This document shows, piece after piece, positions 1 to 22,766 of a stretch of DNA of 23,822 nt. Both the position numbers and the translations under genes were made by a program. The DNA is from a virus (taxonomy: Duplodnaviria; Heunggongvirae; Uroviricota; Caudoviricetes). Within the stretch, counting starts at the first letter, position 1; every line of letters starts with the position of its first letter. The notes under the pieces were generated by a model, which had not been told where the DNA came from, did no database searches, and worked only from the letters and a program-made list of their open reading frames with translations. The DNA is taken from positions 1 to 23,822 of IMG/VR virus record IMGVR_UViG_2671180283_000029; one strand, 5' to 3'.

Positions 1-291
1 ATGACTCACACAGTTACACGCCTTTTGCCAGAGGCATTTGAACGACTGGCAGCAATCAAAGCCAAATACCCTGATATGAAGCATACGGCGCTTGTTGGAG
101 AGCTTTTAAAAGAGTCGGTAACCCTTACCCCTTTTGATAACGTTAAGGGCGTTGCAGAAGGTTCTAAGGCCATCAGAATCACAACGAACCAACTGGAACT
201 ACTCAAAGCACAGTCCGCAGTAGCAGGTTGCTCAATGATTCAAGTGTTAAGTACCAAGGTTCATCAACTGGCGGATAAATTGGGGGTTTAA
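1..291 (+). CDS. hypothetical protein; possibly ribbon-helix-helix-like DNA-binding protein; may be 5'-truncated by the window edge
   Basis: 96-aa ORF starting at window position 1; two segments (TRLLPEAFERLAAIKAK and KAIRITTNQLELLKAQSAVAGCSMIQVL) loosely resemble RHH repeats; no upstream sequence available to confirm the start. Confidence 0.35.
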   Translation: MTHTVTRLLPEAFERLAAIKAKYPDMKHTALVGELLKESVTLTPFDNVKGVAEGSKAIRITTNQLELLKAQSAVAGCSMIQVLSTKVHQLADKLGV

Positions 292-521
292 TGCTACCTA
301 GGTACAAATTTTATAAACTGGCATCACATCTAATCAGACAAGATACCCGCTCAAAAGAATATGAAGATGTTACGCTTGACCGTAACAAGAAAAGACTAAA
401 ACCACATCAAATTGAGCAGTTACGCCATGAATTAAAGTCACTGGATATCGAGCTTGATTATAGTGACCCGACTCAATTTAAACGGGCTTATGAACTCATT
501 AAGAATTGGGGGGAAGAATGA
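291..521 (+). CDS. hypothetical protein (76 aa)
   Basis: ORF in compact same-strand array; its stop overlaps the next ATG (ATGA at 518-521). Confidence 0.4.
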   Translation: MLPRYKFYKLASHLIRQDTRSKEYEDVTLDRNKKRLKPHQIEQLRHELKSLDIELDYSDPTQFKRAYELIKNWGEE

Positions 522-727
522 AGAAAGTATTCACCCTCAAACTTAAAACAGATAAAGCCTTCAAATATTTTCGAAATCTAATTGATGTACATAATGGATG
601 GGGTGACATTGATAATGATGACATCTATCTGATTATGCAATCCCCATCTTTCACGTTAAAAACCTCAGTAACAAAAAGCTGGTTTAGCCAATTTCATAGT
701 GAGATGGGTTTAATAGTCTCAGACTAA
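518..727 (+). CDS. hypothetical protein (69 aa)
   Basis: ATG at 518 preceded by GGGGGAAG SD; the track start at 506 is TTG; translationally coupled to the upstream ORF. Confidence 0.45.
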   Translation: MKKVFTLKLKTDKAFKYFRNLIDVHNGWGDIDNDDIYLIMQSPSFTLKTSVTKSWFSQFHSEMGLIVSD

Positions 728-894
728 AGGCAAAAAACGGTTTTACCCACTCTCAGACGCTCTCAATCGCATTCTAACGCAAAAAACCATCTTATTTTAG
801 GGTATGTTACACCCCTACAGGCTACCCCTGAAAAAGACTGTTTAGCTCGTTACAGAGCGATTGAGGAGGTCTGGTAAAAAGGAGATTTTAGGAA

Positions 895-1191
895 ATGAAC
901 AATTACCCAATGCAAGTTATGGTTGACCAAGAAACTATGAATTGGCTTAATGACCTGAACAGGTCGGGATTTAATATCTATTTCATGCATTGTTTTGAAG
1001 CATCAACGTATATTGACAAGCATATAATCAACGAAATTAAACTTGGTGACTTTGTTCACAAACTGGAAGTAACAGACCCAGACTACAAGAGATTTATCAC
1101 AAGCGAATGCAACCGACTTGATTTAAGCCCGGAGCAATTATTGAAGCTGAATGTATTCTTGACATTAAACCCTTACAGTGAGGTGATGTAA
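895..1191 (+). CDS. hypothetical protein (98 aa)
   Basis: ORF with AAGGAG SD 8 nt upstream of the ATG. Confidence 0.5.
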   Translation: MNNYPMQVMVDQETMNWLNDLNRSGFNIYFMHCFEASTYIDKHIINEIKLGDFVHKLEVTDPDYKRFITSECNRLDLSPEQLLKLNVFLTLNPYSEVM

Positions 1192-1268
1192 TGACGCTCG
1201 TTATTTTATGGACAGCTTTAGGTTTATTATGTGGTTGCCTGATTGCTAACGCAGCTAACAGAAATTGA
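1191..1268 (+). CDS. possible small hydrophobic peptide (25 aa, MTLVILWTALGLLCGCLIANAANRN)
   Basis: ATG at 1191 overlaps the last base of the upstream TAA stop; strongly hydrophobic; below the ORF-track size cutoff; could be spurious. Confidence 0.25.
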   Translation: MTLVILWTALGLLCGCLIANAANRN

Positions 1269-1292
1269 TGTTATCAGATTGTTAAAAAGCTG

Positions 1293-1321
1293 TTGACAAA
1301 TAACCTTAAGCATGACATAAT
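1293..1321 (+). promoter_or_regulatory. near-consensus sigma70-type promoter
   Basis: TTGACA at 1293-1298, 17-nt spacer, CATAAT at 1316-1321, reading rightward into a ~380-nt non-coding leader. Confidence 0.5.
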
Positions 1322-1490
1322 TTTAATTATAGGGAAGAGCAATTCTTCCTAAAATCATATTTTCAATAATCCGATGGATGGATATTCTGAGTTGGAAAGG
1401 TGCAATGCTTTTCGTCATGGCCTTTCAGTTTAGTCTGAGAGGCTATCTCAAAAAGTCTTTGTTCATTCGTTATTGAATCCTTACAGCTTT

Positions 1491-1520
1491 GCCCTAATCA
1501 TGAGTTAGGGCGTTTTCTTT
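1491..1520 (+). terminator. intrinsic terminator-like hairpin in leader
   Basis: GCCCTAA / TTAGGGC 7-bp stem, 7-nt loop, followed by GTTTTCTTT. Confidence 0.4.
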
Positions 1521-1581
1521 AAGAGTTTTAAGCAGAGCTTTTAAAGAAAGTTTTTCCTGAAACTTCGTTAACGTAACCTCC

Positions 1582-1617
1582 AAAGCCCTTCACAGATTAT
1601 GTTTAGGGCTTTTCTTA
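1582..1617 (+). terminator. second hairpin with T-rich tail in leader (terminator or attenuator)
   Basis: AAAGCCCT / AGGGCTTT 8-bp stem with 15-nt loop followed by TCTT; weaker than the first hairpin. Confidence 0.3.
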
Positions 1618-1711
1618 ATAGAGCATCTTTAATCAATCGTTAAGTCATCTTCTAAGTGTATTGGCGTTGAAGGTGCTCTATTAAGAAATAACCACTTAGA
1701 GGAAAATTATA

Positions 1712-2422
1712 ATGACAAACGATTTATATATTAACGGCAGAAAGATTGATAGCTTCGGGGACTGGTCACCACAGACTGAACATCCAGCTATCGCTATTCA
1801 GCGTAAAGAACACGATGAAAGAATTAAGCTTGAGCAAGAAATCCGAATGTCACCAAAGGAAATTACCTTTGTGGCTCCTGAGCCTCAAGAAATGCCTGAT
1901 ATCTGCAAAAGTGAAGCACTATTTAATCTTGAGCGTGAATATTACCCACAGTTAAAAGAACAGCGCCTTAGACTAGATGACGCTTACAGCAAAGTTACCC
2001 TGATGCAATCAGCTATTGAGCCGTCAGAATTTGAGATTCAGGATGAATTGTCACAGAAACCATTTGTCTATTACCAATACGAAGACAATGATGGTTTTGG
2101 TATTTATCCAGAAAACATCCCAGCCGCGATTAGTAGTCTTCCTGAGGGACATCGAATTGTGAAGATGGTTAAGGCATCAAGAGGTGCTGGTCAGTTTATT
2201 TACATGACCAATAAGAGCGATGAAGAACTCTGTGAACTTGCCAGGCAGAACATCTTGGCATCACGTAACAAGCAACTTGAAAATGTTAAGTTGTGTCTCT
2301 TAAGAGAGCTTCAGGCTATGAAAGACCTTATTTCTGCATATGAAACGCAGAAGAAGATTGCTATGCAGGCTGATATTGAGCAGTTAGTGAAGATTTCAAC
2401 GAAGTACGCAAAGGTGCTTTAA
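1712..2422 (+). CDS. hypothetical protein (236 aa), acidic with a coiled-coil-like C-terminus
   Basis: ORF with GAGGAAA SD upstream of the ATG; no recognisable motif. Confidence 0.55.
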   Translation: MTNDLYINGRKIDSFGDWSPQTEHPAIAIQRKEHDERIKLEQEIRMSPKEITFVAPEPQEMPDICKSEALFNLEREYYPQLKEQRLRLDDAYSKVTLMQSAIEPSEFEIQDELSQKPFVYYQYEDNDGFGIYPENIPAAISSLPEGHRIVKMVKASRGAGQFIYMTNKSDEELCELARQNILASRNKQLENVKLCLLRELQAMKDLISAYETQKKIAMQADIEQLVKISTKYAKVL

Positions 2423-2445
2423 CTATGAATTAAAAGAGGTGATTA

Positions 2446-2655
2446 ATGTTTGAAGAACGTTTAGAGACTATTCGGTCTGTTTGTGAAAACTTAAAGTTAC
2501 AAGCCAATCCAGCCTTAAGAATTAAAAACAAACGTCAAGTTATCACCTCACACAAACCAAAAACACGCAAGATTCCAAAGTGGTGTATCGACCGTATCCC
2601 TTCTGATGCCCAAATCATAGGTGAAACGGAATTACATTATCTTGTCAGACATTAA
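2446..2655 (+). CDS. hypothetical basic protein (69 aa)
   Basis: ORF with AGAGGTG SD 4 nt upstream of the ATG. Confidence 0.4.
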   Translation: MFEERLETIRSVCENLKLQANPALRIKNKRQVITSHKPKTRKIPKWCIDRIPSDAQIIGETELHYLVRH

Positions 2656-2733
2656 AAAAGAATTGGTTGGGTAAAAATCTACGGGAGAGATTATCGAGTG
2701 ACATCGGTAGTTTCTCCCTTTTTTGTATATGTG

Positions 2734-2797
2734 CTACGTGAAATCTGTAAAGCTAATACCCACACTGAATAATAGAATTTACGTAGCTCACGCTTAA
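2734..2797. repeat. conserved 64-bp intergenic element, copy A (CTACGTGAA-N11-TAATACCCACAC-N15-ACGTAGCTCACGCTTAA)
   Basis: Three conserved blocks with identical 11- and 15-nt spacings, matched by copy B at 4979-5042; lies directly upstream of the 2816 gene. Confidence 0.6.
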
Positions 2798-2815
2798 AGA
2801 GGTGAAATATGAACA

Positions 2816-4966
2816 ATGGCACAGTTTAAAGTTGATGATTTTCTGATTGAGTTAAGTTTTAACTCTCAGAAAGTTTTAAAAGGCTTGGAAAAAGCCGAGA
2901 AACAAACGATGCAAATCGCATCAAGAATTGAGAAACGACTAAATAAGGCATTCAGAGTTAACCCTACGCCTTTAAATGATTCTCTCAAACTAATGGAAAA
3001 GAATGTCGATAAAACTGTTTCCAAGATTGAGCAGCGTCTTAAAAACACTAGAGCGTTTAAGATTAAAACGGAAATTGATGACACTTTAAAGCCACTTAGA
3101 CAACCAAGACAGCCACGAATTAGCGGCAACAGAGCAATCACAGCGGCTTACTCAGCTAATATGTCTAAGCTAAAAGGCTTTGACCCTATTTTGCAGAAAT
3201 ACATCAAATCTCAGTTTTACGGGCTATCTGCTAAAGCTGGGTCAATGGATTCTTCAAAATTCAATGAGAAGCTGACTCAGTTAAATGCTTCAGTCAGAGA
3301 AGCAATTGCTAAAGCTAAAGGTCATACATCCACCAGCATTAACAATACAAGCGACGCATTTAATAATCTTGCAAGCAATGCAATCAAGTTATCTGGTGCA
3401 TTTTACTCTGTGATGGGTGCTCTTAACGCTTACAAGGCCATCATGAATGCAGGTCTTAAACGAGATTCCGCACAGAGAGCCGCTAAGTTTGTACTTGGTG
3501 ATAAAGCATCTGAGGCTGAAACATTTATCAGGGGACTGGCTGACAAGACAGGTCTTAATATCTCTGAAGGGCTATCAAGCTACGCTAAGTTTGCAGCAGG
3601 TGCTCAGGGTTCTATGTCACAGGAACAGACACAGGAGCTATTTGGTAATGCAACGGCTATGAGTCGCTTAATGGGGCTTTCTAACGATGAGCTAAACGGC
3701 ATTTTGAAAGCATTTGAGCAGATGGCTTCTAAGGGCAAGATTCAGGCTGAAGAGCTTCGTGGGCAGTTAGGTGACCGTATGGCAGGGGCATTTAAGCTAT
3801 TCGCTGAAGCATTGGGTATGACTGCTACAGAGCTTGATAAAGCGATGAAAGACGGGAAGATTTTAAGTAGTGATACTCTCCCTAAAGTCGCTAAACAGAT
3901 GGGCTTGATGATTGATAAAGCGGGTGGCTGGGCTGAAGTCGCTAAGAGCACTCAGACAGCTTTAGGGAAACTGGCTAACAACTGGGATGATACGATGGTG
4001 AAAATCTTCTCAGGTTCACAGGATGAGTTAAACGGCTTCTTATCCAGCATGAGTAGCTTGCTTAGTGAAATGGGTATGAGTTCTTCTATCGCTGGTGATG
4101 CTATCGGTGGACTTATCGACATGCTTAAAGCTGGTGTAGATGACATCCGTATCTTTAACAATCACCTTGAAGGCTGGATTCTACAGATTAAGAAGACCTA
4201 TTACAGCCTTGATGACACTAAACGAAAACTACTTGATGAAGTCGGTGATGGTTTTATCAATTTTGTCAAAGGTCTTGCTATAGCGTTATCTGCAAAGACG
4301 CTATTCAGTGCTACTACAGGGGTTATGAACCTGACAAGAGCAATCACAACGTTAGGTACAAGAGCTAATCAGGTGGCTGGTCAGGTAGCTACTGGTAAAG
4401 GTGTAGCTGGTGGTGTAGGTAGTGCTCTTGCAATTGGTTATGCTGATGACGGTTATGAAACAGCGTTAGCATTAGCTTCAATGATTCCACAAATCAGAGG
4501 CGTCACTCTTGGTTTATATGCATTGAAGAAAGCACTGGATTTTATGAATCAGGAAGTAGTCAAAAACGCTAATATGCATCCATCTGGGGTAGGTGTGGGT
4601 AGTGACTTTAATCCTGTGTATTCTGGTGACCCTAATAAACCGAATATGATTAACGAAGGATGGGGTAGAATTTTTAGTTCAATGGGTGAATTGTTTAACA
4701 ATGCCACAATGAATATTGCAAGATTCAATCATCCAGAATTAATTACCATGAAACAAGATGCATCATTAACGAGCACTGACATCCAAAATCTAAGAGATGA
4801 AATTAGTGCTTTAAGTAAGCGTATTCAGGAGCCTGTGAAAGTTTCACTTGGTGGTGAAGTTGCCATTAAACCAGATGAAACCAGCTTTATGACCTTTAGC
4901 AGTAATATCTACGACCAATATGCAGAAGCTACGTTATTAAGTTCATCATTCCCAGAAGATGATTGA
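2816..4966 (+). CDS. phage tail tape-measure-like protein (716 aa)
   Basis: Motif GKIQAEELRGQLGDRMAGAFKLFAEALGMTATELDKAMKDGKILSSDTLPKVAKQMG resembles the conserved tape-measure domain; helical N-terminus and Gly/Ala-rich hydrophobic segments (about residues 480-560), typical of TMPs. Confidence 0.7.
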   Translation: MAQFKVDDFLIELSFNSQKVLKGLEKAEKQTMQIASRIEKRLNKAFRVNPTPLNDSLKLMEKNVDKTVSKIEQRLKNTRAFKIKTEIDDTLKPLRQPRQPRISGNRAITAAYSANMSKLKGFDPILQKYIKSQFYGLSAKAGSMDSSKFNEKLTQLNASVREAIAKAKGHTSTSINNTSDAFNNLASNAIKLSGAFYSVMGALNAYKAIMNAGLKRDSAQRAAKFVLGDKASEAETFIRGLADKTGLNISEGLSSYAKFAAGAQGSMSQEQTQELFGNATAMSRLMGLSNDELNGILKAFEQMASKGKIQAEELRGQLGDRMAGAFKLFAEALGMTATELDKAMKDGKILSSDTLPKVAKQMGLMIDKAGGWAEVAKSTQTALGKLANNWDDTMVKIFSGSQDELNGFLSSMSSLLSEMGMSSSIAGDAIGGLIDMLKAGVDDIRIFNNHLEGWILQIKKTYYSLDDTKRKLLDEVGDGFINFVKGLAIALSAKTLFSATTGVMNLTRAITTLGTRANQVAGQVATGKGVAGGVGSALAIGYADDGYETALALASMIPQIRGVTLGLYALKKALDFMNQEVVKNANMHPSGVGVGSDFNPVYSGDPNKPNMINEGWGRIFSSMGELFNNATMNIARFNHPELITMKQDASLTSTDIQNLRDEISALSKRIQEPVKVSLGGEVAIKPDETSFMTFSSNIYDQYAEATLLSSSFPEDD

Positions 4967-4978
4967 TTTAACGGTGTT

Positions 4979-5042
4979 CTACGTGAATAAAGCAAAGTTA
5001 ATACCCACACCAAAAATTATTTTTCACGTAGCTCACGCTTAA
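4979..5042. repeat. conserved 64-bp intergenic element, copy B
   Basis: Same three blocks and same spacings as copy A; lies between the TMP-like gene stop and the 5123 gene. Confidence 0.6.
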
Positions 5043-5122
5043 CAGAGAAAATACATACATATCAAAGGTTTGGTTAAAAATGATTAAAATACACTAAGCC
5101 TTTGAAATCAAAGGAGAATTTA

Positions 5123-5911
5123 ATGATTTACTCTAATCAGATTCGTTACAGTGGCAAAGATGGCATCTATTTCCACTTAAGAGATAATGTAGATGCCTTC
5201 TTAACCTTATCAGCAACTGAGAACATGGAATTTGATAGCCCTATGCAGGTGACTACACAGAATATGCAATCGGGGCAAACCGTCACAGATAATGTGCAAA
5301 GAGCACCCAGAACAATCACTATTAGTGGTGTCGTTGTAGTTGGCTATGAAGGGAGCTTATTATTAACTCGTCAGGGTCAATTAGTAGAAAACTTCATCGA
5401 CACTCTGGAAAACTGGCGTGACCAGAAGCAAATTATTTCGGTCATCTGTAAAGATGGAATTAAAATTGATGATTCCATTATTACGAGTTTTAAAGCCTCT
5501 AAAGATGTTGGAATTTCAAATGGTCTAAGAATCCAGCTAACTTTTCAGGAAATTAACTTTAAAGCGATTGTAGGACAAACTGATATTTCAGCAGCAACTG
5601 GAAAGACCGCTACTACAAATGACGGTGGTGTGACCAGTAAGAAGAATGCAGGTAACGTGACCACTGAACGCAATAACGCGCCTATGCTATCGTGCAAAGA
5701 ATTAATGAATATTAGCGATGTATCCGGTTACGCTCCAGCTATCAGAAATGATATTCTCGATGCTCAGATTAAATGTAATAAGGCTTGGAAGCTGGACTAT
5801 TCAGACTTAACAGAAGCTGAAAAAACCAACGTCACCAATGCTAACAGTAACGCTGGTCGGGTAGCTTCAAAGCTTAAAAAGTACTCAGTGAATCCTAACA
5901 AAAAATACTAA
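5123..5911 (+). CDS. hypothetical protein (262 aa); position after the TMP-like gene suggests a tail-associated role, unproven
   Basis: ATG at 5123 with AAGGAG SD (track start at 5102 lacks an SD); Thr/Asn/Gly-rich C-terminal half; 3' end overlaps the convergent recombinase gene by 4 nt. Confidence 0.5.
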
Positions 5912-7431
5912 ATCTCTACTACATCAACATCTATTAAACCCCTCTCAGTGACTTCAGAAAGCGACTGTATAGCCTCTGTAACGTCCTCTGAGGGGTTTTC
6001 TGTTATTGATAGGGTGATTGACTTACTATTGTGAAAAGTCACTTTACAGCGACGTTTAGCAGTATTTAAAACGACCTCTTTAACAGCACTTTTGATTATC
6101 AGTTGTGCTTCAATCCTTCCCGCCTTTGTAGTCAAGTCACAATCGGACAAACAACCCACATCAATAGATTTAAGGCGTTGTGTCTCCTTCTCGATATCAG
6201 CATCAACCTGTGATAGCTCACCTTTTAACTGTTTTAGTTTGCTGGTAATAGCTGACAAATCTTCAATTTCAAGTGATAGCTGTACCAGCTTTTCAATATT
6301 GCTTGAGATGTGTTCACGGTGTAGCCTCAACATATCTATGGTATTCGTCGTATCGCTATCAAATCGGTCAAGACGAGATAGCAGAGTAAGCAATGTACCA
6401 TCGGTTTGCTTACGTGAAAGTCCTTTAGCACTACAACGGTTTTCATTACGAAGAGGACAACGATAAATCCCGCTTCTTGTATCGCTAAAGCCTGTGATAA
6501 TCAGAGCATGACCACATTCAGAACAACGGATAACACCTTTGAAAAGATTCACAGCCATTGGCTTATCTGAAGCAGGTTTTCTACCGTAACGAGCATATGA
6601 TAGTTGCTGGACTTTGTAGAATGTTGTTTCATCTATAATTGCAGGATAATAATCAGCTATCTCTTCACAGCCTTTAGGTGTGAAGTAACCAATTACAGAG
6701 CGATTTTTCAGAAGGTCTTGTACTGAGGTTTGACCAAATGAACCCGCTTTATATTGGTTAAGCGTCTGGTGACCTTCATCATTAAGAGTCCTGACAATCT
6801 CCCAGATAGACTTACCCTCTAACCGTAGCTGAAAGCACCTCTTCACAGTTTCTACCTTCTCAGGTATCACAGAGAAGCTTTTACGGTCATCATTAAGCTT
6901 AAGCCATGCAGGACAACGTTTAGAAATCTTGATACCTTCAGAGATGAGTTCTTTTTTACGGTTCCATGCAGCTTGTATACGCTCAGACTTCCTCAAACTC
7001 TCCTCATGCGACCGCTGCATTATCAGAATGCTTTTAATCAGAGCTAACGGGTCTTTAAGAGATTCTCGTGTGTAATGTTCACCATCGGACAAGGTGACTA
7101 CATCTACACCAGAGCGAAGAATGTTTCGTAATAGCTCACTTGCTCGGTCTACGTTCTGGCGTGACAAACGGTCAAGAGATTCTATCAAGAGCGTATCACC
7201 AGCTTTAACAAGCCCTTTCTCGATAGCGGTTAAGAAGTCACCTAAGCCACCTTTCAAGTGCTTACCAGTGAATCCACTCACACCTAAATCACGGAAGGAT
7301 AAATCTTGGTCAAGGTAGTACTCAGGATGAGCCTTAAGCCAATCAGTGACCATCTTAGATTGTCGGCGTAATGAATCACCTCGGGATTGCTTCTCAGATG
7401 AAAACCTGATGTAAGAAATGGCACGTTTCAT
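5908..7431 (-). CDS. large serine recombinase (serine integrase), 507 aa
   Basis: N-terminal resolvase-type catalytic domain (YIRFSSEKQ with candidate nucleophilic Ser, [11 protein letters not shown]), then recombinase domain, Cys-rich zinc-ribbon-like segment (CSECGH...[11 protein letters not shown]) and C-terminal coiled coil; GAGGTG SD; sits at the element edge next to the junction. Confidence 0.9.
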
Positions 7432-7483
7432 TGTTCACCTCAAAACTGATGCCTAGATTGTATCGCTTTAGGTGGTGTATTTA

Positions 7484-7921
7484 AACGTGTCTAATAAAAA
7501 TCACCCGATTAACGCCGCGCTGATGTAAACCGCGATTAAGCGTTTGTTCCTCTTCCCCTTTGGCGAAAAACTGTGGATGGCGGACTTCCACACCATAATT
7601 AAATTCGCCAGGGAGAGAATCGAGAAAATGCCAAAGCGCAGGCAGCTCCCGTGGGCCGAATGTGGCAGGCAGTTGCAGCCAGTATTGCCCAATGCGCGGA
7701 GCCAACGGTGACATGCGGGTCAAAAATTCAGTCACTAAATCATCGCAATGTCGTAATGCTGCCTGATGCGAAATGGTCGCCGGAAACTTAAAACAGAAGC
7801 GGAAGTCATCTGTGGTCTGTTCACGCCAGCGCAGGACAACCTCGGGTTTCGGCAGGGCGTAAAGCGTGGTGTTGCCCTCCACGCAGTTAACATGACGGGT
7901 ATTAAGGATTAACTTACTGAT
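7484..7921 (-). pseudogene. yecE: internal fragment of a chromosomal DUF72-family gene (yecE-like), truncated at both ends
   Basis: Reading frame open from 7921 to 7484 with no credible start (track start is GTG); the protein matches my recollection of E. coli YecE across its central ~130 residues, with the C-terminal tail (IFIRHV) diverging near 7500 and the 5' end running into the integrase 3' end; GC visibly higher than the left element. Identity is from memory, not a search. Confidence 0.55.
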
Positions 7922-9222
7922 TTTAATAAGCCTCTGGTGTCACTTTGGTGACTATGGGGCATCATTGGGACATAATCTGTCAGCTTCTGATTCAGCATTG
8001 CGATCTGTTCTGCATTGCTGTCAGTCATCCATGCTCCGTATACATTGAATACCATCTGGGCACTTGCATGGCCCATCTGGCTGGCAATGAAGCTTGGGTT
8101 TGCTCCGGCAGATAATGACCAGCACGCATAAGTGTGTCGTGACTGGTATGCCTTTCGATGCCTGATCCCTGCACGCTTAATGGCTGTTTCCCATGAGTCA
8201 CCTACAGAATCGACTTTGTAGACAAAACCTACCTGTTCGCTTTTTCTAACCACTTGAGGGTTAAACACGAAAGTACATTCATGGTTCACTGAACGTCCAT
8301 ATTCACGTAGTTGCACCTTGATGTTGTACTGCTTACCCAGTCTTGTCATTTCAGCCTGATTTTTCAGGACACTGATAGCGGGCTGGATAAGGTGCACAAC
8401 CCTGTTTGTGCTTGCTTCAGTTTTCGGTAGAGTGAACTCACCAAGTTTCGTATAATTGCGCCTGATGGTAATTGTTCCTGCCTTCAGATCGATATCTTCC
8501 CAGGCCAGGGAGACCAGTTCACCGTGACGCATTCCTGTGTACACAGCCAATGACCACAGGTTTTTCGTCTGCTGATGTCGGCAAGCATCTATCAGGCGAA
8601 TAAATTCGTCACGAGTTAGCGGATCTGGCTCTGCCCTGGCTCTTTTAAGAGGCTTAATTCCCTGGAAGGGATTTGCTTCTAAGTAACCGTGATCTGCAGC
8701 AAACTGAAACATTCCAGCGATTGTCGTCATGTAATAATTTACAGTAACGACGCTCCGTCCTTTTGCTGCTGCTTTGTTTTTCGTTGAATTCTGATACCCG
8801 GTCAGCAAATCTTTCCTGATATACAGCAATTCCTCTTTGGTTACCGATGACACCAGTCTACTGCCTCCAATTTTCGGAACCATCGTTCTTGCAACGGATT
8901 CATAGCGATTGAATGCATTTGCAGAGATTTCCATTCGTTTCAGATCCAGCCACTTTTCTTCAAGTTTCTTCACCGTAATTTCTTTTTTACTTACCCCAAA
9001 AGCCTGAAGGTTGGGGGAGTCAGGGAACTGTGCAGCATAATCAAAGCTTCCTGTGCGGATGGCAAAACATACTGATGTCCGCAGTTCCCCGGCGATCTTC
9101 CTGTTCTTGGCAGTGTCAGGGACACCAAGATTTTCCCTGACACGTTTACCTTTAAAATTAAACCAGATGCGTAATGTGCCGCCGTGGTTTTCGACGCCTG
9201 TTGGATATTTGACTTTATCCAT
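7909..9222 (-). CDS. int: phage tyrosine integrase (437 aa)
   Basis: C-terminal catalytic region with Arg/His/Tyr pattern (GMRHGELVSL, SRHTYACW, MGHAS, VYGAW); GGAGG SD; adjacent to the chromosomal gene remnant and followed by an excisionase-like gene. Confidence 0.9.
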   Translation of the reverse strand: MDKVKYPTGVENHGGTLRIWFNFKGKRVRENLGVPDTAKNRKIAGELRTSVCFAIRTGSFDYAAQFPDSPNLQAFGVSKKEITVKKLEEKWLDLKRMEISANAFNRYESVARTMVPKIGGSRLVSSVTKEELLYIRKDLLTGYQNSTKNKAAAKGRSVVTVNYYMTTIAGMFQFAADHGYLEANPFQGIKPLKRARAEPDPLTRDEFIRLIDACRHQQTKNLWSLAVYTGMRHGELVSLAWEDIDLKAGTITIRRNYTKLGEFTLPKTEASTNRVVHLIQPAISVLKNQAEMTRLGKQYNIKVQLREYGRSVNHECTFVFNPQVVRKSEQVGFVYKVDSVGDSWETAIKRAGIRHRKAYQSRHTYACWSLSAGANPSFIASQMGHASAQMVFNVYGAWMTDSNAEQIAMLNQKLTDYVPMMPHSHQSDTRGLLKSVS

Positions 9223-9277
9223 CGATACCTCCAGACGCCCAAGAGCGATACGAGCTTACATATTTCATGATATTAAA

Positions 9278-9514
9278 TCACCTGGGTTGTTTGTTTTTCA
9301 TTGAGGCGACCCAGGCATCTATTGCTTTTCTGTTATACATACATTCACTGGAAGGCTTTGGATTACCGTCTGGTGATACGTGAATATACTCTCTTCCAAC
9401 CATCCAGCATTCTTTCCGGGCCCGAAGAATTGTGCCTGGTTTGAGCCCGGTAATTGCGATAAGAACGCTTTCACAAACCCATTCATTGGGAGTCAGTTGA
9501 ATCACATTGCCCAT
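9278..9514 (-). CDS. xis: excisionase-like protein (78 aa)
   Basis: Small protein immediately upstream of int on the same strand; WMVGREYIHV resembles the lambda Xis winged-helix region (DGREYLFH). Confidence 0.6.
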   Translation of the reverse strand: MGNVIQLTPNEWVCESVLIAITGLKPGTILRARKECWMVGREYIHVSPDGNPKPSSECMYNRKAIDAWVASMKNKQPR

Positions 9515-9522
9515 GCATTACC

Positions 9523-9669
9523 TCACACAACACTCAGCCCACGGCAGTGGTACCACACTTCAAACATTCGTTTCACAATTTCACGACAGTAGAAGACGTC
9601 AACATCTCGCGTCAGGTCATAGCGATTGCCGTAACGCTGGCGCACCCATAGCTCAAACGCTTTATTCAT
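9523..9669 (-). CDS. small hypothetical protein (48 aa, MNKAFELWVRQRYGNRYDLTRDVDVFYCREIVKRMFEVWYHCRGLSVV)
   Basis: ATG at 9669 with AAGGAAG SD; fills the gap between xis and the next gene; below the track size cutoff. Confidence 0.35.
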   Translation of the reverse strand: MNKAFELWVRQRYGNRYDLTRDVDVFYCREIVKRMFEVWYHCRGLSVV

Positions 9670-9672
9670 TCT

Positions 9673-9915
9673 TTACTTCCTTTTCATGGCCCGTAATTTT
9701 TTCAGATGAGCTTCCTGCTCTGTTTCTGCCAGAATTTGTCGGTATTCCTGGTGATCAATCCGTTCAAACAGTTCATTGAAATCGTTTATTTTTACTGACT
9801 GTGTTCGCCCATCCATTCTTCTGTACAACACAGTGTTGTTTATGCAGCGAACAATTTTTACCGGGTAACCGGCATTGTCGGTATACAGTTGTCCCTGATT
9901 AATCAAAGCGAACAT
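9673..9915 (-). CDS. hypothetical phage protein (80 aa)
   Basis: Internal ATG at 9915 preceded by AGGAG SD; the track's longer 121-aa version would overlap the upstream gene. Confidence 0.5.
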   Translation of the reverse strand: MFALINQGQLYTDNAGYPVKIVRCINNTVLYRRMDGRTQSVKINDFNELFERIDHQEYRQILAETEQEAHLKKLRAMKRK

Positions 9916-9946
9916 TTTTTCTCCTGCTCTCTGAATAGTGAGAACT

Positions 9947-10318
9947 TCAGAGCCGTATGTTTGTAGCGGGTTCAATACTGATAATTTCTGCTGAGATAAG
10001 CATCCCGGCAAGCCAGAGCTCTCCGGACAGATCTTCATCCTGGCATGTCAGTTCGCCAATATTAATGGTGGCCATGATATCTGTTTCCCCTGTACGCTCA
10101 TCCTCGACTTCTTCATAAGGCAGCGTTGCGTACAGGCTTTCAATAGCGCAACTGATAACATCGAGTCCGGTCAGGTTGCCACCGACAGTGACTTCGAATG
10201 TTTCGCGGTATTCCCATTGCCCGAAAGTTAATCGAACGGTTTGTTTCGCCATGCGTCCGCATGACGTCAGATTTGGGTCATAGTTCATTATTTGCGGTTG
10301 AGTATTATGAGTGTTCAT
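9947..10318 (-). CDS. hypothetical phage protein (123 aa), acidic
   Basis: ORF in the leftward early operon; no recognisable motif. Confidence 0.5.
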   Translation of the reverse strand: MNTHNTQPQIMNYDPNLTSCGRMAKQTVRLTFGQWEYRETFEVTVGGNLTGLDVISCAIESLYATLPYEEVEDERTGETDIMATINIGELTCQDEDLSGELWLAGMLISAEIISIEPATNIRL

Positions 10319-10359
10319 CTGCTTTTCCCTTAGCCCGACGGCCTGCCGGGCATATTAAG

Positions 10360-11187
10360 TTATTTAACCTGGATAAATGGTGTATTGGCACCGCTGGTCA
10401 TGTATTGCGGCAGCGTGCCATTCCATTTATTGATGGCTTCCAGCTCCATAACACCGGGGTTCTGACGCAGAGCTTCACCGCGTAAACGAATAGCATCGGC
10501 TTCAGCCTGGGCTTTTGTGCGAATCGCATCAGCCTGTCCGGCAGCTTCCGCGCGCAACATGTTGGCTTCCGCTTCGCGCTGTTTTACTTCCTGCTCGCGT
10601 TGCAGAGTTTTCTGGTTCGCCGTGACTTTGGCATTAATGCTGTCGATAACAGTAGGCGGGTACTCCGGCTTACCCACATATGAGAGGCTTATTACCTGAA
10701 TACCGATGGGCGTCATTTCTTCCTGAATGTCTTTAAGAGCTGCATCCAGCAGCTCAGACTTGCCGCCGTCGATAAATTTGTCGGTGGTCATTTTGCTGGC
10801 CAGTCGGTTGAGTGCGTCGGCTATCTTCTGGCGCAGGTCGGTGTCGGTAATGTCGTCCACGCCTTTGCGGTAGGTCTGAAAGACTGTGGTAACTTTGGAT
10901 GGATCAACCTTGTAGGCTACTCCGATGTGGTAACCAATGGTTGTTCCATCGCTCATCTGGAAACTGAATGGATCATCGTAGGTCTTCATCTGCTTAAAGG
11001 TCGGGAAGATATAAACTTCAGTGTTCCAGCCTGTCCAGTAGCGACCAACACCGACCACTTCACCGACGCCTTTGTCGTCGCCAAGTTTGTTGACTTTGAT
11101 GCCCACATTACCAGGCTCAACACGATCACAACCGACAAGGCCAATGGCAGGCAGAACAATGGCTAAAGAAAAAATAATTTTTTTCAT
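10360..11187 (-). CDS. SPFH/band-7 (prohibitin/stomatin-like) domain lipoprotein, 275 aa
   Basis: Signal peptide with lipobox LVGC (MKKIIFSLAIVLPAIGLVGC); band-7-like core; C-terminal Ala/Glu/Arg/Gln-rich coiled coil typical of SPFH oligomerisation tails; AAGGA SD; ATGA overlap with the upstream small gene. Confidence 0.75.
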   Translation of the reverse strand: MKKIIFSLAIVLPAIGLVGCDRVEPGNVGIKVNKLGDDKGVGEVVGVGRYWTGWNTEVYIFPTFKQMKTYDDPFSFQMSDGTTIGYHIGVAYKVDPSKVTTVFQTYRKGVDDITDTDLRQKIADALNRLASKMTTDKFIDGGKSELLDAALKDIQEEMTPIGIQVISLSYVGKPEYPPTVIDSINAKVTANQKTLQREQEVKQREAEANMLRAEAAGQADAIRTKAQAEADAIRLRGEALRQNPGVMELEAINKWNGTLPQYMTSGANTPFIQVK

Positions 11188-11372
11188 CTTTTATCCTTAG
11201 TGAAAGAAAGCCCCTTATAAATGGTATAAATGCATGGCGGGGTTAGAAACGTCAGTGCAAAGCCAGAAATCACCGCTACCGTATCCTTCATTGATATCAG
11301 AAACGGGACGAGCAATCCGTAAATACATGCGATAATTGCCAGTGATATAACTATTCTGAAATAAATATTCAT
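11184..11372 (-). CDS. small membrane protein (62 aa, two predicted TM helices) coupled to the SPFH lipoprotein
   Basis: Two hydrophobic stretches (IVISLAIIACIYGLLVPFLI and AVISGFALTFLTPPCIYTI); AGGAGG SD; its stop overlaps the lipoprotein ATG. Confidence 0.55.
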   Translation of the reverse strand: MNIYFRIVISLAIIACIYGLLVPFLISMKDTVAVISGFALTFLTPPCIYTIYKGLSFTKDKR

Positions 11373-11432
11373 GGTCCTCCTGCTGTATTCGGCTTGCCTT
11401 ATTTAATTGCGTCATGGTTAATTTCGTTTACG

Positions 11433-11825
11433 TCAGAATGGTTTTGTTGCCATCAGTTCGTAATATCCGGCGCTCCATGTGTCATATTTTCTGAACCATT
11501 TTTCTGTATACTGTTTCCTGGCGATGAGTCTGCGCAGTCGTCTGATTGTTCGCTGGTGTGCGCGGGTGTACTCTGTGGTTGATTCTCCACGTTTCCATAT
11601 CTCATTCCCGTTGAAGATAAAACGCTTGTCAGGATGGCGTTGTCGGAATCCTGAACGTTCAAAAGCGCGGGTGGTCATAAAGAATGCCAGGTAACGAATT
11701 GCCGTTTTTCGAGTGAGGCATTTTTTTGTTCTTCCGTGGCGTGTTACAAAAAATAACGGGCCGACGGGTGTATCATGTTTCTGTAATGCCTGGTCAATGG
11801 CGCTGGCGGTGCGGTTGTCGATCAT
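11433..11825 (-). CDS. hypothetical basic protein (130 aa)
   Basis: ORF in the coupled leftward operon; Arg/Lys-rich; start overlaps the upstream gene stop. Confidence 0.5.
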   Translation of the reverse strand: MIDNRTASAIDQALQKHDTPVGPLFFVTRHGRTKKCLTRKTAIRYLAFFMTTRAFERSGFRQRHPDKRFIFNGNEIWKRGESTTEYTRAHQRTIRRLRRLIARKQYTEKWFRKYDTWSAGYYELMATKPF

Positions 11826-12040
11826 TTCTTTATTTCTCCTGAATAACGTTCATGACTCATTACTTCCCAGTTCCGGCCGTCGTCTTTCGATAACAGCCGC
11901 CAGCGACGGTTAACCTTCAGACTGAGACATCCGTTGCGCTGTATCCGATGCGGGAATATACGTCGGCATCTGTACCGCCGCAGGACCAGCAACGCCTGCT
12001 GGTGGACCCACTCAGGAATTCGCGTTGCTGTTAATGTCAC
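11822..12040 (-). CDS. hypothetical protein (72 aa)
   Basis: GTG start at 12040 with AGGAGG SD 6 nt upstream; ATGA-type junction with the downstream gene. Confidence 0.4.
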   Translation of the reverse strand: MTLTATRIPEWVHQQALLVLRRYRCRRIFPHRIQRNGCLSLKVNRRWRLLSKDDGRNWEVMSHERYSGEIKK

Positions 12041-12227
12041 TGGTTTCCTCCTGAGCAGGTGCTGTTATCTGATACCCCGCTCTTTCTGCCAGCCATATGA
12101 ATGTATCCATGCTGGCAATCAGCTCTCCATCGCGGACTTTGCAGACATCTGTTACCTGGCCATTTTCAATTGTCATAACGATCTGCACTTTTTCGTGCAC
12201 AACAGATACAGGGGATAAATTAGCCAT
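12012..12227 (-). CDS. hypothetical protein (71 aa)
   Basis: ATG at 12227 with GGAGG SD; overlaps the stop of the upstream gene. Confidence 0.45.
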   Translation of the reverse strand: MANLSPVSVVHEKVQIVMTIENGQVTDVCKVRDGELIASMDTFIWLAERAGYQITAPAQEETSDINSNANS

Positions 12228-12586
12228 CAGTTAATTCCTCCGCTGATATATTTTTCTTTCGCGTAATCAATAACCTCTTGTAAAAGGTTGTCTATAATTA
12301 ACTTTCCGGTTTCAGCCTGGTATTCAGTATGTTGATTAATCCCGATGGCATTCTGGTATGCAGTTCGGAATTCTGTTTCACCCTCCACTCGACCCAATTC
12401 ACCACGGGTAATATCTTCAAAGCGCAACAGCAACTGGTTTATAAACTGTTCTGTTATTTCTATGGTCGTAATGTTCCCATTCAGAAGGTCAACAATAAGC
12501 AGTTCACCACCTGTTTTACGTTTTATTCGATGGAGTTCTGCAACAGCTATACGGCGACGATATGTATTAATGGATTCATGTGTCAT
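12227..12586 (-). CDS. hypothetical protein (119 aa)
   Basis: ORF in the coupled leftward operon. Confidence 0.5.
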   Translation of the reverse strand: MTHESINTYRRRIAVAELHRIKRKTGGELLIVDLLNGNITTIEITEQFINQLLLRFEDITRGELGRVEGETEFRTAYQNAIGINQHTEYQAETGKLIIDNLLQEVIDYAKEKYISGGIN

Positions 12587-12589
12587 TTG

Positions 12590-12703
12590 TTATTTCCCGT
12601 ATGCTTTACGCAGAAATAAGCAGGCAATATGCATGTAATTTTCACCGTATTGTGCAATAAGACAGGCGGTCTTGTGTGATGCCATATTCTTTATAAAAGT
12701 CAT
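12590..12703 (-). CDS. small hypothetical protein (37 aa, MTFIKNMASHKTACLIAQYGENYMHIACLFLRKAYGK)
   Basis: ATG at 12703 with perfect AGGAGG SD 7 nt upstream; ends 4 nt before the next gene's start; below the track cutoff. Confidence 0.3.
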   Translation of the reverse strand: MTFIKNMASHKTACLIAQYGENYMHIACLFLRKAYGK

Positions 12704-12781
12704 AATAAAGCCTCCTGTGGATTAAGATTGTAACAATCCCCGGCGATAAAACCGCAATAAACCTTCAGGGCATATTTGTTG

Positions 12782-13147
12782 TTATTGCGCTAATTCTTTT
12801 TCGGCAGCAGCTTTTGCATACTCACATGCAAAATTCAGAATTTCGCTGCCGAGTGTTTTCGTTTCGTGATTACTGGACATATGTAATACCTGTGTTGCAT
12901 GCAATAAATGATAAACATTTACCGCAAATGAATCAGGCTCCAGACAAATGCCTTCGTAATTATCTTGCTGTGAGGTTGTTTCTGTCATTGCTTCTGAAGT
13001 GCATGCGAGCCTGTTTTTGACAATTCTCTTTCCTCTAATCACTATATCGGCAACATCTATTGCCTTTACAACCTCCGGGAGAAGTTCCGGGTTTGTATAA
13101 TCAAAGTCATCAACATGGAGAACAGTTATGTTTTCGAACTTTTTCAT
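12782..13147 (-). CDS. hypothetical protein (121 aa); first gene of the leftward early operon (lambda N map position, not N-like)
   Basis: ORF preceded by a divergent intergenic region (13148-13326) containing inverted repeats; not arginine-rich like N. Confidence 0.5.
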   Translation of the reverse strand: MKKFENITVLHVDDFDYTNPELLPEVVKAIDVADIVIRGKRIVKNRLACTSEAMTETTSQQDNYEGICLEPDSFAVNVYHLLHATQVLHMSSNHETKTLGSEILNFACEYAKAAAEKELAQ

Positions 13148-13326
13148 GGCTTCCTCAGCTGACTTATATGTCCTGCTATATAGCGAGTCTCAGAAGTGTT
13201 TTCATATTGAGACTGTTTCCGCAATGATTGATAATCAGTTACCGGATGCTTATCCGTGTCCGGCGCACGACCACACGTAGCCGCGTGTTGGTCCCCATTT
13301 TCAATTCAGCTCTCAATGGAGGATAA

Positions 13327-13554
13327 ATGATTAACGCAGAGCAACTCGAAAAAGAGATTTCAGAACTCAAAAAAGAATTAATTTGGCACAAAGTTGCTAT
13401 CTCCGCATTAATTCGTCAGGTAGTTTCACCTGAAGATAAAGTAAAGTTTATGAAGCAGCTCTCATCTTCATCAAAGGAGTTTTTCACTGACGAGGTTCAT
13501 CCAGAGGCTGGATTTTGGATCCGTCAATTATTTTCGCAAGATAAGCGTAAATAG
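13327..13554 (+). CDS. hypothetical small coiled-coil protein (75 aa)
   Basis: ATG with GGAGG SD 5 nt upstream; converges on and overlaps the 3' end of the minus-strand 80-aa gene by 71 nt. Confidence 0.45.
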   Translation: MINAEQLEKEISELKKELIWHKVAISALIRQVVSPEDKVKFMKQLSSSSKEFFTDEVHPEAGFWIRQLFSQDKRK

Positions 13555-13726
13555 CGTCATCAATACTCGCGTCGCTCTTGAATTTAAGAGCGATGCTCTT
13601 TATATCCTCTGAAATTATTACCAGATCACCATATGTTATATTTTTATTATTGCGCGCAGTGCTTTTTTGTATGAAATCAAGCAATTCACCAATGAGACAA
13701 ATATGGTAAGCATTACAGTTTTTCAT
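13484..13726 (-). CDS. hypothetical protein (80 aa), gene B of the cI-adjacent module
   Basis: ATG at 13726 overlaps the TGA of the upstream HTH gene (ATGA junction); the track's longer version starts further upstream in the other gene. Confidence 0.5.
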   Translation of the reverse strand: MKNCNAYHICLIGELLDFIQKSTARNNKNITYGDLVIISEDIKSIALKFKSDASIDDAIYAYLAKIIDGSKIQPLDEPRQ

Positions 13727-14184
13727 GCGCAGATATCCTTTGCTGCCGTTTCGCCAGTTAACAGCCACATCGCATCGCAGCCAAGAATATTTGCCAGTGG
13801 GATAAGCATACTGATAGTTGGTTCATACTCTCCGCTCTCCCACTGGATGATAATTTCTTCATCGAGATCGAGCAGCCTGGCGAGTTCGGCGGTTGTTAAG
13901 CCGCAGGCTTCGCGTTGGGTGCGAAGGTTAACCAGCCAGCTTTCAGGGAAGGATTGTTTTTGTTGCGCAGGAGAAGCAGCAGATAGAGCATATTCATGGA
14001 TAAATTCCATTATCTCAATGCCCAGTTCCTTTGAGCGAGCACAATCCAGAAGATGGAATGTGCGTACAGCACTTAGCAAATTTGCAATATTTAATGCAAA
14101 GGAATCAAGTTCTAAGCCCTTAAGCGTAACACAGCCGCAGTTGATAAAATTAGTTGTTTCTGGAGTTGCTTTTAGTGTCTTCAT
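13723..14184 (-). CDS. XRE-family HTH protein with an unknown N-terminal domain (153 aa), gene A of the cI-adjacent module
   Basis: C-terminal LRTQREACGLTTAELARLLDLDEEIIIQWESGEYEPTISMLIPLANILGCDAMWLL is a classic XRE helix-turn-helix; ATG at 14184 with GGCGGA SD (track start at 14214 is TTG); N-terminal ~85 aa unrecognised. Confidence 0.6.
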   Translation of the reverse strand: MKTLKATPETTNFINCGCVTLKGLELDSFALNIANLLSAVRTFHLLDCARSKELGIEIMEFIHEYALSAASPAQQKQSFPESWLVNLRTQREACGLTTAELARLLDLDEEIIIQWESGEYEPTISMLIPLANILGCDAMWLLTGETAAKDICA

Positions 14185-14237
14185 ATATCCGCCAACAATT
14201 TTAAATTGAATCAAATCAAGTTATAATTGATGGTGCG

Positions 14238-14266
14238 ATATTATGTTTTGGGAAATAGCCTGTCAA
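14238..14266 (-). promoter_or_regulatory. near-consensus sigma70-type promoter for the gene A-B module
   Basis: On the minus strand TTGACA (rc of 14261-14266), 17-nt spacer, TAATAT (rc of 14238-14243); lies between the cI terminator and gene A. Confidence 0.45.
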
Positions 14267-14294
14267 GAAAAAATTGATATCGTATATTTCAGGC

Positions 14295-14318
14295 AGAAAA
14301 AAAACGGGCAAAGCCCGT
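14295..14318 (-). terminator. intrinsic terminator downstream of cI
   Basis: On the minus strand ACGGGC-TTT-GCCCGT stem-loop followed by T8. Confidence 0.55.
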
Positions 14319-14330
14319 TAAAATCAAAGA

Positions 14331-15026: not shown

Positions 15027-15153
15027 ATCCTGTGGGTTTCTTTACAAGGATAAATCTTTACTTGATTTTAGTGTATTCGATCCTTTTGCAACTTGCATGT
15101 TAATTTAAACTTGATGTATTCTTGATTTATAAAGTTAATATTGGTGCTTTGTT
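15027..15153. promoter_or_regulatory. cI/cro divergent promoter-operator region (pRM/pR equivalent)
   Basis: 127-bp AT-rich spacer between divergent cI and cro-like genes containing three copies of a CTTGAT-containing motif; exact operators not resolved. Confidence 0.45.
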
Positions 15154-16148: not shown

Positions 16149-16256
16149 AAAAAAGCCGGGAGTAACCCGGCTCACTCAACATCAATAACGGGGAGCTGTT
16201 TCGCATAAAACGGCTCCGAAACATCCAAGAACAGTTCTAAAGATATCAGCAGCTAT

Positions 16257-18700: not shown

Positions 18701-18710
18701 GGTGACAGCG

Positions 18711-21261: not shown

Positions 21262-21306
21262 TGGCTGAATTTTTTCTTCTGCGTTCATGCAATACCGTTC
21301 GCTGAG

Positions 21307-22302: not shown

Positions 22303-22319
22303 TTTTGTGGAGAAAGTTG

Positions 22320-22691: not shown

Positions 22692-22766
22692 TAATAAATT
22701 CAATCAAAGTAAATAATCATATTTTATTATAACCTCCTGATGATACCTGTTCATTGGGAGATTATT

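Follow-up and report, generated by a model that had tools for sequence, protein, structure and literature searches.

Barth et al. 2023 described putative Escherichia coli satellites of Justusliebigvirus phages (Inny, Muut, Mt1B1_P17), which carry genes for a tape measure protein (TMP) and for a baseplate-hub-region protein without other tail genes, together with genes for the major capsid and decoration proteins and with RepA_N initiators; for the most part they encode a tyrosine integrase next to tRNA genes, or occupy a lysR site, and a subset has a serine recombinase (PMC10055350). These satellites are the nearest precedent for the element reported here. It forms the left part of a 23,822-nt stretch of DNA (IMG/VR record IMGVR_UViG_2671180283_000029, positions 1 to 23,822, called the window below), is inserted in the gene yecE, and encodes, besides a large serine recombinase, homologues of the TMP and tube initiator of Felix O1-like phages. 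On balance we lean towards regarding it as a phage satellite whose helpers are these virulent Felix O1-like myoviruses (Ounavirinae).

The element resembles the Justusliebigvirus satellites in being an enterobacterial island tied to large virulent myoviruses, in the modular DNA-binding modules of its putative replication initiator and, as far as the published description allows the likeness to be drawn, in the combination of a TMP gene and a hub-region gene without other tail genes (PMC10055350). It differs from them in having no capsid, decoration or RepA_N match, in a putative initiator of the HTH_36 (helix-turn-helix) type, in a phage partner from Ounavirinae, and in its sites, which are yecE or the interval between lpxL and a major facilitator superfamily (MFS) transporter gene. 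The phage-inducible chromosomal island (PICI)-like elements (PLEs) of Vibrio cholerae are also small AT-rich islands in which a large serine recombinase is the integrase and almost every other gene lies on a single strand. They have their own replication initiator with an allele-specific origin, a strictly virulent myovirus as helper (presumed for our element) and sequence exchanged with this helper (in part after PMC10055350), but they are larger (~18 kb against 11 kb here) and use Vibrio repeats as their site instead of yecE. Pfam and PHROG scans of all open reading frames (ORFs), which compare families rather than PLE proteins directly, gave no family shared with the PLE core genes (RepA_N initiator, TcaP, NixI, CapR, LidI). 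To our knowledge, PLEs have no tape measure protein and no tube initiator.

Known satellites carry defence cargo. PICIs, capsid-forming PICIs (cf-PICIs) and P4-like satellites share with the element an integrase, a replicon (a putative one in the element), few helper-interacting genes and variable defence cargo, and no match to their hallmarks (tyrosine integrase, alpA, pri-rep, terS, capsid/portal, sid/psu/delta) was obtained in the element by Pfam and PHROG. The cf-PICIs also encode one part of the virion themselves and take the other part from the helper; here, in contrast, the division of labour is reversed, with two tail-core genes and no capsid genes. In the literature searched, outside which further papers may exist, we found no description of the yecE element or of any satellite or dedicated mobile antagonist of Felix O1-like phages.

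Positions 1-7496 of the window are the right-hand 7.5 kb, about two-thirds, of an element of ~11 kb. Homology to yecE of K-12 begins (blastn) at window position 7497, corresponding to nt ~473-479 of the 819-nt gene, and the boundary at 7496/7497 is clean. The remaining fragment of yecE ends at 7890 (nt ~86 of the gene), where a lambdoid prophage is inserted ~390 bp further along. Because the yecE homology ends at 7497 and at 7890, both the element and the prophage interrupt this gene, at different points; in K-12 and most E. coli it is uninterrupted. The features on which the argument rests are as follows.

2816-4966, plus strand: TMP, 716 aa, homologue of Felix O1 ORF67 (PF20155, 2.8e-22; phrog_4036, 9.5e-90)
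5123-5911, plus strand: Dit-like tube initiator, 262 aa from an ATG led by a Shine-Dalgarno sequence, homologue of Felix O1 ORF68 and Bas63 gp18 (PF21821, 2.6e-20; phrog_3721, 1.5e-130)
5908-7431, minus strand: large serine recombinase, 507 aa, putative element integrase (Resolvase, Recombinase and Zn_ribbon_recom domains; phrog_95 integrase, 8.6e-76)
7432-7503: attR, consisting of the element arm with its inverted-repeat end GTGTATTTA and the 7-bp core AAAATCA at 7497-7503
7497-7890, minus strand: internal yecE (DUF72) fragment, nt ~86-479 of the gene, 98.7% identical to K-12 (PF01904, 1.3e-31)

The sequence-only reading of this DNA had taken the left 7.5 kb for a foreign, phage-like integrative element, possibly a satellite, placed in the same gene as the lambdoid prophage, more AT-rich than its surroundings, ending in a large serine recombinase ~70 bp from the break in yecE and continuing past the start of the window. 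This picture is supported. The recombinase start codon lies 65 bp from the junction, and GC content is 0.397 in 1-7496 against 0.474 in 7497-23822 (in 500-nt steps 0.36-0.47 in the left part and, for most steps, 0.43-0.57 in the right). The left end of the element is outside the window, and its total size was taken from the closest complete relatives, by which ~3.7 kb would lie to the left. Complete copies measure 11,224 bp in E. coli PM22 and 11,150 bp in E. coli ECONIH2, each flanked by the two halves of yecE, and 10,698 bp in Salmonella at the identical site. Neither PM22 and ECONIH2 nor YD786 appear in the supplementary files of Barth et al. 2023, with Table S6 possibly outside this comparison (PMC10055350). 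In the closest complete relatives the sequence to the left is not that of a full siphophage: it holds ~1.1 kb of non-coding DNA, a gene for a Dam-like methylase fused to an HTH domain, the gene of a 320-aa initiator-like HTH_36 protein, and small ORFs. Together with the composition and with the recombinase, which behaves in sequence as an integrase (see below), this leaves the earlier proposal standing on all three points by which it was to be judged.

The TMP and tube initiator genes are the only virion-type genes detectable among all ORFs of four versions of the element (Pfam, PHROG). No capsid, portal, terminase, sheath, tube or lysis gene was found in any version by these scans, and sheath, tube, baseplate wedge, capsid, portal and terminase genes, which an Ounavirinae-type prophage should have, were not found around the TMP gene. 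The NCBIfam scan gave generic recombinase and TMP matches only, and PADLOC gave no match on ten element proteins. Since the complete copies are only 10.7-11.2 kb long, their gene order does not change between E. coli, Salmonella and Citrobacter, and purifying selection acts on them, the element is not a truncated ordinary phage.

The best phage matches of the TMP are all Felix O1-like. It is 32% identical to the Felix O1 TMP (742 aa) over 556 aa, and the conserved parts are the N-terminal ~45 aa and the C-terminal tip, which reads LLSSSFPEDD in the element and LLSSSYPEEE in the phage. The next gene had not been recognised in the sequence-only reading, where the tape-measure-like ORF was held to be the only one of identifiable type; that limit falls with the identification of its product as a tube initiator, which matches the PDB entry 9ndy_A ("Tube initiator protein") at 2e-115. 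Over the whole protein it is 76% identical to Felix O1 ORF68. This identity is very uneven: residues ~13-180, forming the tube-like domain, are ~98% identical, whereas the last ~85-89 aa are unrelated except for the final SVNPNKK, and the C-terminal 89 aa of the E. coli element had no match in 50,697 phage records. The Salmonella copy encodes a full-length tube initiator with a C-extension homologous to that of Felix O1.

The cryo-EM structure of the Felixounavirus Bas63 gives a meaning to these conserved regions. On the hub, a hexamer of the tube initiator serves as the adaptor between the three-fold symmetry of the hub and the six-fold tube; the protein has a tube-like fold and a ~100-residue C-terminal extension that threads the baseplate, and the hub is contacted by the last 25 residues of the TMP (PMC12609058). 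In this helper-type phage the tube initiator and the TMP are one functional unit. Taking the Bas63 structure together with the regions conserved in the TMP and the tube initiator, the element encodes precisely those two proteins that, in the phage, start the tail tube and determine its length, with the known interfaces kept. The pair corresponds to Felix O1 ORF67 and ORF68 (gp17 and gp18 of Bas63) in order and in similar TMP length. However, in the phages these genes are part of a complete morphogenesis operon in a virulent genome of 86 kb, and in the element they stand alone within 11 kb, with a TMP core of only 32% identity and, in E. coli copies, an element-specific C-extension of the tube initiator.

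How recently have the element and the phages shared this DNA? A tract of 510 nt (5147-5656) is 95.1% identical to Felix O1 and ~95% identical to ~200 Felix O1-like genomes, and the DNA on both of its sides is unrelated to these phages. Synonymous divergence (dS) of the tube-initiator N-domain is 0.25 to Felix O1 against 0.25-0.37 between alleles of the element. Because the distance to the phage is no larger than that between alleles, the tube-like domain has been exchanged with phages as recently as among copies of the element. The GC content of the element (0.393-0.397) is close to that of Felix O1 (0.390). When all element proteins were compared with the whole 86-kb Felix O1 genome by tblastn, nothing was found beyond ORF67 and ORF68. 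Since the DNA of window positions 1-2830 matched no phage in the distant search mode, phage similarity within the element part of the window is limited to the TMP and tube initiator genes. A related connection is seen in other hosts: the TMP of a Klebsiella relative has 57% identity to Erwinia Felix O1-like phages, and an island in Erwinia amylovora has nearly the same TMP as this Klebsiella relative.

Non-coding DNA adds to the tie. In the complete copies, the stretch preceding the first gene, upstream of the main operon, is homologous to two intergenic regions of Felix O1: it is colinear with positions 13289-13452 and also, in reversed orientation, with ~160 nt of the control region between the divergent ORF40 and ORF41. 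A query with the left non-coding DNA matched 249 phage records, in unannotated DNA only, and the phages listed were Felix O1-like, with genomes of 85-90 kb, infecting E. coli, Salmonella, Shigella and Citrobacter. Of the Felix O1-like blocks, one or the other is retained in each of the Citrobacter and Pluralibacter versions. The motif TATACAG is present five times in one orientation within 1 kb of the left non-coding DNA (L003:5284-6385, outside the window), and no counterpart of this cluster was found in Felix O1.

The putative replicon likewise lies in the part left of the window. The HTH_36 protein has weak PHROG matches to replication initiators (5e-07 to 1e-03), and its gene contains tandem iterons that differ from allele to allele, 23 bp repeated 3.8 times in ECONIH2 and TGACATTTTGTCAC repeated four times in PM22 and in the metagenome contig L023. 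Iterons within an initiator-like gene suggest the arrangement of lambda O, where the origin lies inside the initiator gene.

The 507-aa recombinase has the features of the large serine family. The catalytic domain (PF00239, 5.3e-21, residues 4-160) is followed by PF07508 (8.5e-16) and PF13408 (5.1e-07), the length falls within the ~450-700 aa expected, and in the nucleophile motif YIRFSS..Q the serine S11 is invariant across 18 homologues. Its gene converges on the genes of the plus strand. Comparison of attB, attL and attR gave the common core AAAATCA, and joining the ends of the element produces an attP of 46 bp, centred on an A-run, whose 9-bp inverted ends (GTGTATTTA and TAAATACAC) are perfect. 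Inverted ends around a centre are expected of an attP used by a serine integrase. Full length, position beside the att site, a short core, the 46-bp attP, an empty attB elsewhere and the junction described next all argue that this protein is the integrase of the element and not a resolvase or invertase of a plasmid or transposon. Excision by such integrases needs a directionality factor, for which the small ORFs offered no candidate.

A 26-mer across the rebuilt attP occurs exactly once in the metagenome collection, in contig L023 (11,473 bp; ENA assembly ERZ1090866), and has no match in IMG/VR or in the contigs of one genome per species. L023 is the entire element in circular permutation, with its ends abutting at one element coordinate, and contains no yecE sequence or host flanks. 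Because the attP junction sits in a host-free, circularly permuted contig, an excised circle or a head-to-tail concatemer appears to exist in nature; a tandem integrated copy is the weaker alternative source of this contig. The break of L023 is located inside the iteron region of the rep gene, and its last 43 nt (11431-11473) are a Nextera transposase adapter (CTGTCTCTTATACACATCT...), an assembly contamination. L023 also has, near attP, a gene for a 191-aa small serine resolvase or invertase (2000-2575) that is lost in PM22 and ECONIH2, and a small Resolvase-domain gene of similar size is present in each of the Pluralibacter, Klebsiella, Serratia and Pectobacterium relatives. A role of the L023 protein in multimer resolution is possible.

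A relative of the recombinase was detected in 297 of the 5,426 complete E. coli genomes (~5%), and all 388 matches in these genomes are chromosomal, with none on plasmids. In Citrobacter freundii the copy, with a recombinase of 82% identity, likewise has a lambdoid prophage as its neighbour, and its fragment homologous to yecE stops at the same position in yecE to within a few bases. In Pluralibacter (63% identical) the gene order is the same and the site is between lpxL and the MFS-transporter gene, so that this architecture is found in E. coli, Salmonella, Citrobacter and Pluralibacter at two att sites. In this group the TMP and tube initiator pair is the most conserved cargo and tracks Ounavirinae sequences. 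A more distant Klebsiella relative is again in yecE (recombinase 49% identical), and in Serratia a copy interrupts a type II secretion / pilus ATPase gene. The variable parts of relatives hold cargo that includes AbiTii in Klebsiella grimontii (L011) and Serratia fonticola (L016) and a Shedu-type SduA_C nuclease in Serratia. Two homologues of the recombinase were set aside as uninformative, one of Yersinia (39% identity) lying beside P2-like tail genes and one of E. coli (68% identity) in a ~4-kb remnant at the lpxL locus. This remnant (L008:10001-13934) holds the recombinase, a small resolvase and a 227-aa ORF at the site occupied in Pluralibacter, between lpxL and the MFS-transporter gene.

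How much distinction has accumulated in the element genes along these lineages? E. coli alleles differ from each other by a dS of 0.14-0.37 and from Citrobacter by one of ~1-2. The ratio of nonsynonymous to synonymous rates (omega) is 0.03-0.45 for every element gene tested, with 0.10-0.32 for the TMP and 0.13-0.18 for the recombinase, a pattern that points to genes maintained by purifying selection and not to a decaying prophage. The TMP of the window is closest to that of PM22 and orf236, the gene at 1712-2422, to that of ECONIH2; because the two have different closest alleles, copies of the element recombine with each other. Some copies are interrupted by insertion sequences (IS) or have no small resolvase gene.

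Judged by its sequence, the element has the general features of a satellite: it is integrated and within the range of ~7-20 kb, has its own integrase and att sites, is without a full set of virion, packaging and lysis genes, and shows a specific molecular link to a presumed helper phage. We lean to the satellite reading because the integrase, the putative replicon, the excised form, the absence of autonomous virion genes, the two exchanged helper-type genes, the copied control DNA, the helper-like GC content and the defence cargo of relatives all fit into it. In such a cycle, infection by a Felix O1-like phage would switch on the long plus-strand operon through the phage-like control region. 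The element would then excise and replicate from the origin inside the rep gene, and its TMP and tube initiator would load onto the baseplate hub of the helper and nucleate the tube, a step that needs just 3-6 copies per virion. Tails made in the infected cell would thus carry a satellite-encoded core, which may aid transfer of the element, lower the yield of infectious helper, or both; transfer would take place in helper-derived particles.

Several observations weigh against this proposal. No sign of encapsidation was found in virome-type data, and neither a packaging signal nor a capsid-size factor or small terminase could be identified. The evidence on replication and on Felix O1-like control DNA as a promoter mimic comes from relatives, in regions left of the window. 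The sole attP contig could reflect a plasmid-like or tandem form rather than helper-induced excision. In IMG/VR the attP junction and orf236 led only to prophage predictions from isolate genomes, with no virion evidence. A search of 50,697 phages with the Rep protein, for an Odn-like anti-satellite nuclease, gave no match. The TMP is missing from about half of the more distant islands whose recombinase is related, and therefore the tail genes are not universal in the wider clade.

A more specific proposal is made tentatively, at a little less than even confidence. The element may be the first satellite family of Ounavirinae phages, spread across E. coli, Salmonella, Citrobacter and relatives, which replaces the tail-nucleating core of its helper (TMP and tube initiator) rather than remodelling capsids, is wired to the helper through copied phage control DNA, has a constitutive small RNA and a lambda-O-style origin in rep, and swaps segments with its helpers in real time.

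Of the other explanations, the one that survives best is still unlikely in our judgement. It holds that the island is mobile and directed against phages but is not transduced: the TMP and tube initiator would be decoys that poison tail nucleation of Felix O1-like phages, a defence at the level of the population, and the recombinase and replicon would serve only integration and maintenance. Both proteins act at a step with very few copies per virion, the E. coli tube initiator joins a phage-identical tube-like domain to a C-extension found in no phage, and relatives carry bona fide defence genes. Interference with tail assembly is also established among mobile elements (PMC11364771, PMC10884400). 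The Tai and Tab systems are alike in that genes of mobile elements act at the tail-assembly step of an infecting phage, but by their description they are inhibitor proteins, and here we have full-length homologues of tail components (PMC11364771, PMC10884400). Against this reading, the Salmonella tube initiator is full-length, with a C-extension homologous to that of Felix O1, and in both proteins all known interaction tips are kept and purifying selection acts as on working structural proteins. Phage-like control DNA, a replicon and an excised 11.5-kb form exceed the needs of a static defence pair, to which PADLOC gave no match either.

We think it improbable that the element is an integrative plasmid-like element that captured two phage genes and spreads independently of virions. 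The Rep-like gene with iterons, the small serine resolvase of the metagenome circle and of relatives, and the circular 11.5-kb assembly itself would suit this account; yet no mobilisation or conjugation genes were found, the E. coli recombinase matches are chromosomal in 388 of 388 cases, and it is the TMP and tube initiator pair, tracking Ounavirinae, that is conserved best among the cargo. Least credible of all is that a temperate phage related to Ounavirinae, once complete, left a cryptic remnant that is now fixed in yecE and drifts, as might be read from the tail genes, Dam-like methylase and integrase and from copies interrupted by IS or deprived of the small resolvase gene, for the same 11-kb content is found in at least four genera at two att sites, every tested gene is under strong purifying selection although dS reaches 2, virulent phages of the present day still exchange sequence with it, the attP form occurs free of host DNA, and among the related loci inspected there is no longer version that joins the TMP and tube initiator module to further structural genes. 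The probability that remains belongs to readings not listed here.

Felix O1-like phages are widely used in Salmonella typing, in food biocontrol and in phage therapy against E. coli and Salmonella. If the element parasitises or blocks them, it would be a widespread, hitherto unannotated determinant of phage host range and of therapy failure, and it would also offer a tractable E. coli counterpart of the Vibrio PLE-ICP1 system and a new satellite strategy, the takeover of the nucleation step governed by tape measure and tube initiator. The element is at present mis-annotated, with orf236 named a "transposase" and the whole merged with the lambdoid prophage in virus catalogues. In IMG/VR (L018-L022) it is catalogued only inside "viral genomes" of 25-50 kb that apparently combine it with the adjacent lambdoid prophage.

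The other features of the window are the following.

1-291, plus strand: orf96, small conserved protein kept in E. coli and Citrobacter copies (omega 0.04-0.26)
291-727, plus strand: variable cargo slot with two small ORFs (291-521 and 506-727), occupied in ECONIH2 by an unrelated 141-aa gene
895-1191, plus strand: orf98, with homologues of ~100-109 aa at the same position in PM22, ECONIH2 and Salmonella
1293-1520, plus strand: candidate small RNA gene, with promoter at 1293-1321, transcript of ~190 nt at ~1328-1520 and intrinsic terminator at 1490-1512
1712-2422, plus strand: orf236, element-specific coiled-coil protein (AlphaFold2 model, pLDDT 80, long helical hairpins and a small beta sheet)
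2446-2655, plus strand: orf69, small basic protein encoded just upstream of the TMP gene, present in all versions and highly divergent
2730-2797, plus strand: 68-nt repeat, copy 1 (direct repeat D1), upstream of the TMP gene
4975-5042, plus strand: 68-nt repeat, copy 2, upstream of the tube initiator gene
7891-23822: lambdoid prophage with its own tyrosine integrase, outside the element

The plus-strand ORFs of the element within the window are 1-291, 291-521, 506-727, 895-1191, 1712-2422, 2446-2655, 2816-4966 and 5123-5911. They had been described as compact and on the same strand. The common strand holds, but uniform compactness does not, as there are gaps at 728-894, 1192-1711 (520 bp) and 2656-2815.

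The 520-bp gap is the best-conserved non-coding block of the element and contains the candidate small RNA gene. Its sigma-70 promoter is near consensus, agreeing at 11 of 12 positions and carrying the TG as well, and across six versions of the element the promoter block hardly varies. The predicted transcript has four conserved hairpins, with six pairs showing compensatory change, and folds with a minimum free energy of -59.8 kcal/mol (z = -4.8). Its conservation extends over the E. coli, Salmonella, Citrobacter and metagenome versions. An Rfam scan of window positions 1-8000 at E <= 0.1 returned nothing.

No Pfam or PHROG match was obtained for orf96; its Salmonella counterpart has a sub-threshold VapB/RHH match, a weak hint at a possible ribbon-helix-helix (RHH) regulator. 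The slot at 291-727 resembles, by analogy, the accessory or defence hotspots of other satellites. No family match was found for orf98 in Pfam, PHROG, PADLOC or NCBIfam, nor for orf69 in Pfam or PHROG.

The product of orf236 (omega 0.26-0.45) gave only generic coiled-coil matches in a fold search. It is extremely polymorphic: at 90% identity its E. coli and Salmonella sequences fall into more than 3000 clusters, against only 20 representatives at 50% identity. In IMG/VR it was found at five loci only, all of them prophage predictions from isolate genomes that take in the neighbouring lambdoid prophage. The NCBI name "transposase", carried by hundreds of records, is not supported by any Pfam, PHROG or NCBIfam match or by the coiled-coil fold. 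From the position of its gene, one may guess at a cognate tape-measure chaperone or assembly factor.

The two copies of the 68-nt repeat are 78% identical and have an internal 9-bp inverted repeat (CTACGTGAA...TTnACGTAG) with arms ~30 nt apart. The repeat is absent upstream of the ECONIH2 TMP gene and from Felix O1, and the latter absence rules out a copied phage promoter. The repeat could be an operator, a processing site or a small mobile cassette.

The neighbouring lambdoid prophage encodes a tyrosine integrase at 7909-9222 on the minus strand (Arm-DNA-bind_2 and Phage_integrase domains) and has an early region with a CI-like repressor, DnaB, DUF968 and Q. Window positions 7497-23822 are 100% identical to another strain, in which the match begins exactly at the element junction; this suggests that the other strain has the prophage but lacks the serine-recombinase element. 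Directly downstream of the Q gene (22305-22691), in the position where Stx phages carry their toxin genes, lies an AT-rich ORF of 214 aa (22740-23384, plus strand; GC 0.37 over 22500-23500) that has no Pfam match and, from this position, is probably a moron.

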